A model generated the notes under the pieces. That model was given only the letters and a program-made list of their open reading frames with translations. It was not told where the DNA came from and made no database searches. Of a stretch of 64,000 nt of DNA, positions 39,245 through 39,806 are shown in pieces. The translations under genes were made by a program, and so were the position numbers. The DNA comes from Eledone cirrhosa (Eukaryota), in contig OZ024765.1 in assembly GCA_964016885.1 (NCBI GenBank), forward strand, positions 434,001 to 498,000, read 5' to 3'. The stretch's first letter is position 1. The number at the start of each line of letters is the position of its first letter.

Positions 39245-39798
39245 GTTTCTGAATTTGTTTAGCAAGATTCTTTAACTGAAATCGTGTGTTGAAACCGATA
39301 TTGTTATACTTTGGGAGGGTCATGTTGCCAATAAGAAACACACGCACCAGTTGCTTTCACTTCAATTTATTATATATTTATAAATTTACAAATTTATAAA
39401 TTTCTGGTTGGTTGGTTGGTTCCACAACCAGATAGTTGTTTATATATAGTCATAGTTCTTTCGTAACACACTCTGTGACCTCTTCAGTGACTGGGGATTC
39501 CTTTCTTTGTTTCTGTGCCTCTCCTTTGTTCTGTCCTACGTCTTTGTTTCTGAAACAAAATGGCGTAGGACAGAACAAAGGAGAGGCACAGAAACAAAGA
39601 AAGGAATCCCCAGTCACTGAAGAGGTCACAGAGTGTGTGACGAAAGAACTATGACTATATATAAACAACTATCTGGTTGTGGAACCAACCAACCAACCAG
39701 AAATTTATAAATTTGTAAATTTATAAATATATAATAAATTGAAGTGAAAGCAACTGGTGCGTGTGTTTCTTATTGGCAACATGACCCTCCCAAAGTAT

Positions 39799-39806
<8 letters not shown>
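39245..39806. mobile_element. HHR family C palindrome (arms ~253 bp, centre 39551, tail 39245-39297)
   Basis: Near-perfect inverted repeat. The ORF track shows mirror-image 72-aa ORFs on both strands. Confidence 0.95.
39612..39656 (+). ncRNA. Minimal type I hammerhead ribozyme, family C (mirror copy on minus strand 39448-39492)
   Basis: AGTCA-CTGAAGA-g GTCAC agagtgt GTGAC-GAAAG-aa-CT-A/TGACT. Intact core, 5-bp stems I and II, rudimentary stem III. Predicted cleavage after 39651. Confidence 0.85.

Follow-up and report, generated by a model that had tools for sequence, protein, structure and literature searches.

The stretch of Eledone cirrhosa DNA analysed here (64,000 nt of contig OZ024765.1, referred to as the window) contains a long palindrome with a hammerhead ribozyme motif in each arm, and the two motifs point away from each other. 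This raises the question of whether the palindrome is a ribozyme device, as which it had been read in a preliminary description that named no source for it, or the remnant of a mobile element. The hammerhead reading and the sense/antisense logic of that description were retained, while the device reading was given up because the features fit a likely truncated insertion of a Penelope-like element (PLE) as described in PMC4209133 and PMC8557442. As judged from its sequence, the palindrome very probably consists of two 5'-truncated, hammerhead-bearing PLE ends, one of them with a 53-base tail, which lie head to head in a TA repeat. The explanation as a whole, namely a dead-end PLE insertion whose hammerheads are predicted to be masked passengers, is held with nearly the same confidence.

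Anatomy of the palindrome and its flanks

A palindrome of about 500 bp with two divergent minimal hammerheads had been reported, and both arms and the outward-pointing motifs were found. It does not begin at 39245 as previously assumed. This position is the boundary of the insertion; the inverted repeat starts at 39298 and ends at 39806 (509 bp) with its centre at 39551 and a spacer of 1 nt. The left arm (39298-39550) is read as a 5'-truncated pseudo-LTR copy with its sense on the minus strand and the right arm (39552-39806) as a 5'-truncated pseudo-LTR copy on the plus strand, whose last 4 nt blend into the adjacent (TA)n. The arms are identical at 247 of 249 aligned bases and differ further by a 2-nt gap near the centre, and in the outer 243 bp only one mismatch (39465/39639) is present. 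With its nearly identical arms, the insertion 39245-39806 is young. The unpaired stretch at 39245-39297 is a tail of 53 nt that has no partner and belongs to the minus-sense copy (minus strand) only. The reading frame of the arm carries on into this tail, and the same tail end is found in a paralogue and in a third copy. At the junction (39541-39551, minus strand), 11 nt equal the reverse complement of the internal stretch 39590-39600. They are possibly templated filler, with only 3 of these 11 nt exceeding the bases that are already common to the other arm.

Both ends of the insertion sit inside (TA)n, with a run of 20 nt on the left (39225-39244) and a second run on the right (39807-39859), so that a target-site duplication is unreadable at either end. 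The window is AT-rich with a GC content of 0.18-0.35 per 2 kb; approx. 26% of it is masked as simple repeat and it holds 587 TA runs. Part of the stretch is contained in 20 of the 24 sequencing runs listed, and half or more of it in 4. There was no RNA run among the listed runs that contain the stretch, which has no bearing on expression.

Hammerhead motifs in the arms

The motif in the right arm (39612-39656, plus strand) is an intact minimal type I hammerhead. It has a stem I of 5 bp, a core at 39617-39623, a stem II of 6 bp with a 5-nt loop, GAAA at 39642-39645 and a 2-bp helix III with an AA loop. One extra G (39624) lies between positions 9 and 10.1, and the G10.1-C11.1 pair is G39625-C39641. 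Thus, the claim that this hammerhead is intact in core and stems was confirmed, as C3-A9, GAAA, U16.1-H17 and helices I and II are all present. The cut proposed at 39651/39652 likewise agrees with the site predicted from U16.1/A17 at 39650/39651. The left arm carries a minimal type I motif on the minus strand (39448-39492) with H17 at 39453. The single stem II mismatch attributed to it was found as C.U at pair 3 (39465).

A strict hammerhead descriptor was passed by none of 20,000 dinucleotide shuffles of the arm. On the window, four real matches were obtained compared to none in 100 block shuffles. At gathering level, Rfam reported no hammerhead within the window, and among 47 matches within the element at E up to 10 none was a hammerhead. 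The weaker Rfam matches were mostly miRNA models, which suit any long hairpin, and a miRNA reading was rejected. A search of metagenome contigs with DNA patterns from the element resulted in 0 and 0 matches. Two viral matches to an 18-mer had neither stem II nor GAAA and were taken as chance.

Minimal hammerheads of metazoan PLEs are described in PMC4209133 with an extra base between A9 and G10.1, a G10.1-C11.1 pair, a long helix II and a helix I of 4-5 bp. The motifs of the palindrome have the same type I core, extra base 9/10.1, G10.1-C11.1 pair, long helix II and short helix I. They differ in the AA loop 3, which is not palindromic, and in helix II with 6 bp compared to 7-8 bp in Schistosoma. 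The same paper reports dual minimal hammerheads on opposite strands, 100-700 bp apart, and ties them to truncated PLEs.

Related insertions in the window

All copy evidence for the family was drawn from the 64-kb window, where the sample comprises three insertions. The paralogous insertion (45289-45671, minus strand) sits in (TA)n and consists of a tail and a long arm with a hammerhead on the minus strand, a 45-nt spacer and a short inverted arm without tail that measures only about 28 nt. Its tail is 56 nt long versus 53 nt at 39245-39297, and its arm extends 45 nt beyond the centre of the focal palindrome. The hammerhead of the paralogue, with its core at 45539 on the minus strand, has an intact core and stem II and a changed loop and H17. 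It had been stated to keep stems I and II and to differ in the loop and the cleavage-site base. This holds for stem II, the loop and H17, but stem I has lost its outer pair, both sides of which are changed, and 4 bp are left. Between the paralogues, none of 33 constrained motif positions was changed compared to 23 of 251 outside (P ~0.04).

The third insertion (36529-36574) is composed of an inverted arm end and the last approx. 17 nt of the tail, with a 2-nt AA overlap at the join. Its halves correspond to element positions 217-253 and 292-309 and do not overlap within the element. The three family insertions thus have three different structures. In all three, one end lies at element position 253 and the other at 306-309, both pointing outward and arranged head to head, and TA runs of 18-92 nt are present at all six ends.

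Twelve TA-flanked elements were additionally picked by eye in the window; an automatic count of TA islands (13/115) was set aside since internal TATA runs split elements. Ten of the hand-picked elements are inverted repeats extended by 39-109 nt on one side only, and two consist of non-overlapping halves.

Near-perfect palindromes are a known class of artefact. That the locus arose by fold-back during assembly or library preparation is nevertheless extremely improbable, given that one internal base and the centre differ between the arms, that the tail-less end falls on the same base at three separate loci and that the one-sided build recurs in ten of the twelve hand-picked elements. Long inverted arms and TA flanks would also be expected of a DNA transposon of the fold-back or MITE type, with long terminal inverted repeats and a TA insertion site, in which the hammerhead would be incidental, and TA-targeting DNA transposons exist (PMC4486113). 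This origin is largely refuted and very unlikely. The ends are not mutual inverses because of the 53-nt tail, one end is an unpaired tail in all three insertions, the paralogue and the third copy have no symmetric termini, and the hammerhead motif was never reached in the shuffles described above.

Coding traces

An ATG with the first codons of a likely ORF is located at 39781-39806 (plus strand). On the minus copy, this frame carries on through the tail to 26 codons, and the same 26-codon frame from the ATG is present in both paralogues, between which the tail frame shows one synonymous and three non-synonymous changes, a point against the PLE explanation. A profile of the ATG/tail frame retrieved 13 proteins at E up to 0.001. 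Seven of them were dropped as multi-stretch matches in unrelated or repetitive proteins (five of the seven were checked). The remaining six are short unnamed peptides with single-stretch matches (E 5.9e-7 to 1.2e-4) and a motif in common; in five, an internal Met is found at the same place as the likely ORF start. One of the peptides carries, approx. 52 codons upstream, five residues that are encoded by the hammerhead core in another frame (at the protein level).

A second open frame (39553-39654, plus strand) runs through the hammerhead and ends with a TGA stop at 39652-39654, just past the cut site. The chance of an open frame of this length is ~0.08. Between the paralogues, it shows four synonymous and three non-synonymous codon changes, and a protein search found no relatives of it. 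As a weak possibility, the frame might encode the C-terminal end of the ORF in this element. Searches at the protein level for the complete ORF or longer relatives gave no match, and none of 79 frames of the window matched Pfam, so that neither an RT nor a GIY-YIG sequence was found.

Probable assignment to Penelope-like elements

According to PMC8557442, PLE insertions are strongly truncated at the 5' end and often lie next to an inverted copy that is likewise 5'-truncated, with a tail of 30-40 bp at one end; their pseudo-LTR (pLTR) carries hammerheads, and several clades use (TA)n targets. In a rotifer PLE, the pLTR carries the first 12 codons of the ORF, or 22 with the tail (PMC3846280). 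A PLE insertion is likely at the focal locus because of the one-sided tail, the (TA)n flanks, the two fixed 3' endpoints and the ORF start. It resembles the EN+ PLEs of these two papers in its head-to-head inverted copies, the tail at one end only and the (TA)n target, as well as in an ORF start within pLTR and tail and a hammerhead near the 3' end that is sense to this end. The ORF start comprises approx. 9 codons, or 26 with the tail, compared to 12 and 22 in PMC3846280, and its linkage to an RT is putative here. Differences concern the tail, which has 53 nt (56 nt in the paralogue) versus the 30-40 bp quoted, and the RT/GIY-YIG ORF, which was not found. Membership in the PLEs rests on structure and is likely; an ORF for RT or endonuclease was not found in the window. 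The presence of a hammerhead argues against the Naiad clade, described in PMC8557442 as having no canonical hammerhead, and TA targeting together with a hammerhead fits Neptune or Hydra PLEs.

The element was also compared with PAc (Poseidon, Anolis carolinensis; PMC11167929). Both have two 3' endpoints that bound the tail, an AT-rich target, a tail inside the ORF start and an uncleaved RNA as probable template. The ORF of PAc starts within the hammerhead, whereas here the likely start lies 164 nt past the core and another frame ends at the cut site. Inverted insertions are not discussed in the PAc paper.

Animal non-LTR retrozymes (10.64898/2026.07.22.740005) are similar in being short, PLE-related and equipped with a type I hammerhead, but are described as head-to-tail tandems, whereas the palindrome is made of inverted copies and has a single sense motif on each strand. 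The class is defined by two or more hammerhead-bearing units arranged head to tail, and the inverted pair was not assigned to it.

The palindrome could further be a short non-autonomous PLE derivative that has a fixed 5' end and undergoes transcription and copying itself, its hairpin silencing the hammerhead or feeding small silencing RNAs. The publication of hammerhead-bearing PLE derivatives as retrozymes in the latter source speaks for this idea, as do the clustering of 5' ends in two other families and in two related U3-A8 palindromes and the conservation of hammerhead positions between the paralogues. Yet the three family insertions differ in structure, so that the hairpin is not the copied unit, the hammerhead of one arm is already damaged, and the arm of the paralogue continues 45 nt beyond the focal centre. 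This derivative is regarded as improbable.

The insertion 39245-39806 is thus likely an ordinary truncated PLE insertion in an arrangement already in print. The locus itself matters little, being one of many truncated PLE-like insertions, and paired minimal hammerheads on opposite strands have already been published (PMC4209133). Its use lies in the caution that a long palindrome of animal DNA is not necessarily an RNA device, even if it is TA-flanked and carries ribozyme motifs.

Predicted folding and activity

It was correctly noted before that a transcript from either strand holds one sense and one antisense hammerhead. That hairpin formation competes with cleavage, as was also proposed, understates the prediction. 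The hairpin was favoured over the ribozyme fold by 72.3 and 75.7 kcal/mol on the two strands, and the predicted probability of stem II was 0.0 in either full-length strand. Because the motifs diverge, the antisense arm is always transcribed first in read-through, and any read-through RNA of the locus would zip into a 250-bp hairpin. Folding of the plus-arm motif was predicted only for RNAs with an internal start beyond the antisense motif (at 39500 or 39540), and the isolated minus arm did not fold its motif (stem II ~0.01).

A dimer would not be formed from two sense motifs of the same RNA, as neither strand carries two of them. Palindromic positions 15.2-16.2 and loop 3 are frequent in the minimal hammerheads of metazoan PLEs, though outside the descriptor; here, the G15.2-C16.2 pair is present, and the AA loop 3 would leave two A.A mismatches in a dimer. 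The predicted dimer helix III amounts to +1.4 kcal/mol compared to -8.3 kcal/mol for the other (U3-A8) family. Based on these folding models, the hammerheads at 39245-39806 are in all probability inert passengers that are masked by the hairpin. Any activity of the hammerhead in the parent element would depend on help from a protein or a tandem partner. A minimal PLE hammerhead did not cleave as a monomer (PMC4209133), and the hammerhead of the anole PLE cleaved only with its protein (PMC11167929). For these two reasons, non-cleavage of the arm as monomer or dimer, which had been put forward as a refutation of the hammerhead, would be a weak one.

Formation of the head-to-head structure

The formation of inverted PLE structures was named an open task in PMC8557442. 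Here, a GIY-YIG endonuclease of the element may have nicked both strands of (TA)n. Reverse transcription would then be primed at each nick, in one case from the start site at the end of the arm and in the other 53-56 nt further 3' at the end of the tail. Both cDNAs would stop early, and their 3' ends would be joined via short homology or filler. The copies retain an uncut hammerhead, and therefore the template would be uncleaved RNA. The anole PLE protein was reported to cut and extend both strands of AT-rich DNA, and two RT start sites bound the tail there, with uncleaved RNA as the main template (PMC11167929). We consider double priming from two RT start sites somewhat better than an even bet.

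The alternative is likewise a PLE insertion, in which the inversion arose by self-priming or fold-back of one strand and was followed by an endonuclease cut at the tail boundary. It is less probable, though a serious contender. Self-priming is the reading given in PMC3846280, and PMC8557442 proposes that the tail results from resolution by the endonuclease. The spacers point in this direction: they measure 8 nt or less and are near zero in eight of the ten hand-picked palindromes, two of which have fully identical arms (70/70 and 189/189). Short spacers count against double priming because they are predicted by fold-back but not by independent truncation. On the other hand, the halves of the mini-insertions at 36529-36574 and 27290-27408 do not overlap in their elements; they cannot be copies of each other and favour double priming over fold-back. 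Near the focal centre, the right arm has bases that are common to the paralogue but absent from the left arm. Simple copying of the arm with the tail thus does not account for it. Finally, in another family unpaired single arms start where palindromic ones do. In two other families, the 5' ends cluster at one place, including those of unpaired single arms, and for these two families only it is suggested that a shared stop point could yield symmetry without fold-back.

We put forward, with slightly more doubt than confidence, that double target-primed reverse transcription from two RT start sites makes PLE palindromes, that the dense TA-flanked stubs of this genome, among them those with non-overlapping halves, settle the matter versus self-priming, and that in the focal family the hammerhead doubles as the last codons of the ORF and cuts just before the stop. 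In the literature searched, neither a published statement of double priming for PLE inversions nor a published hammerhead that overlaps a stop codon in PLEs was found; either point, or the family itself, may already be recorded in repeat libraries such as Repbase and Dfam, in supplements or in subscription papers. With at least 12 stubs in 64 kb, a cheap test of double priming versus fold-back is available at genome scale.

Other TA-flanked elements and repeats

A second palindrome with two divergent minimal hammerheads, a U3-A8 core variant, was observed at 49055-49390. It has a palindromic helix III on the plus arm, a one-sided tail of 65 nt and TA flanks, and shares the build of the focal family. 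A palindrome at 11534-11953 with identical arms (189/189) and a 39-nt tail is related to 49120-49390, with its centre at nearly the same homologous position. Its motif is hammerhead-like with GCAA instead of GAAA.

Another TA-flanked family with fixed arm and tail ends is represented at 5495-5629, 18970-19016, 33361-33546, 33736-33880, 39061-39224 and 49405-49488. Most of its 5' ends coincide with a motif similar to CUGAUGA...GAAAC whose 4-nt loop varies; this may be a hammerhead variant at which copying comes to a halt. In a third family (14037-14093, 27290-27604, 33579-33735 and 59320-59505), the 5' ends cluster within approx. 12 nt. The halves at 27290-27408 are non-overlapping, and two of the junctions fold at a short hairpin similar to stem II of a hammerhead. 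An exact 11-nt word, which is a candidate protein-binding signal, recurs in the tails of two families that differ otherwise (5578, 27352, 27548, 33402, 33625, 39173 and 59366).

Two further inverted repeats, each single-copy, TA-flanked and devoid of a hammerhead match, are located at 5043-5251 and 45713-46041 and are extended on one side by 65 and 104 nt, respectively. A diverged inverted pair at 58694-59007 (70% identical) showed tRNA-like box motifs by eye and possibly represents two SINE copies. A dispersed repeat of approx. 190 nt occurs in many copies and both orientations (2978-3069, 3829-4256, 8796-8979, 10085-10285, 14247-14436, 34785-34975, 35096-35278 and 52631-52811), with an 80-nt tandem at 3829-4147. 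A tandem array with a period of approx. 123 nt spans 6737-7634.
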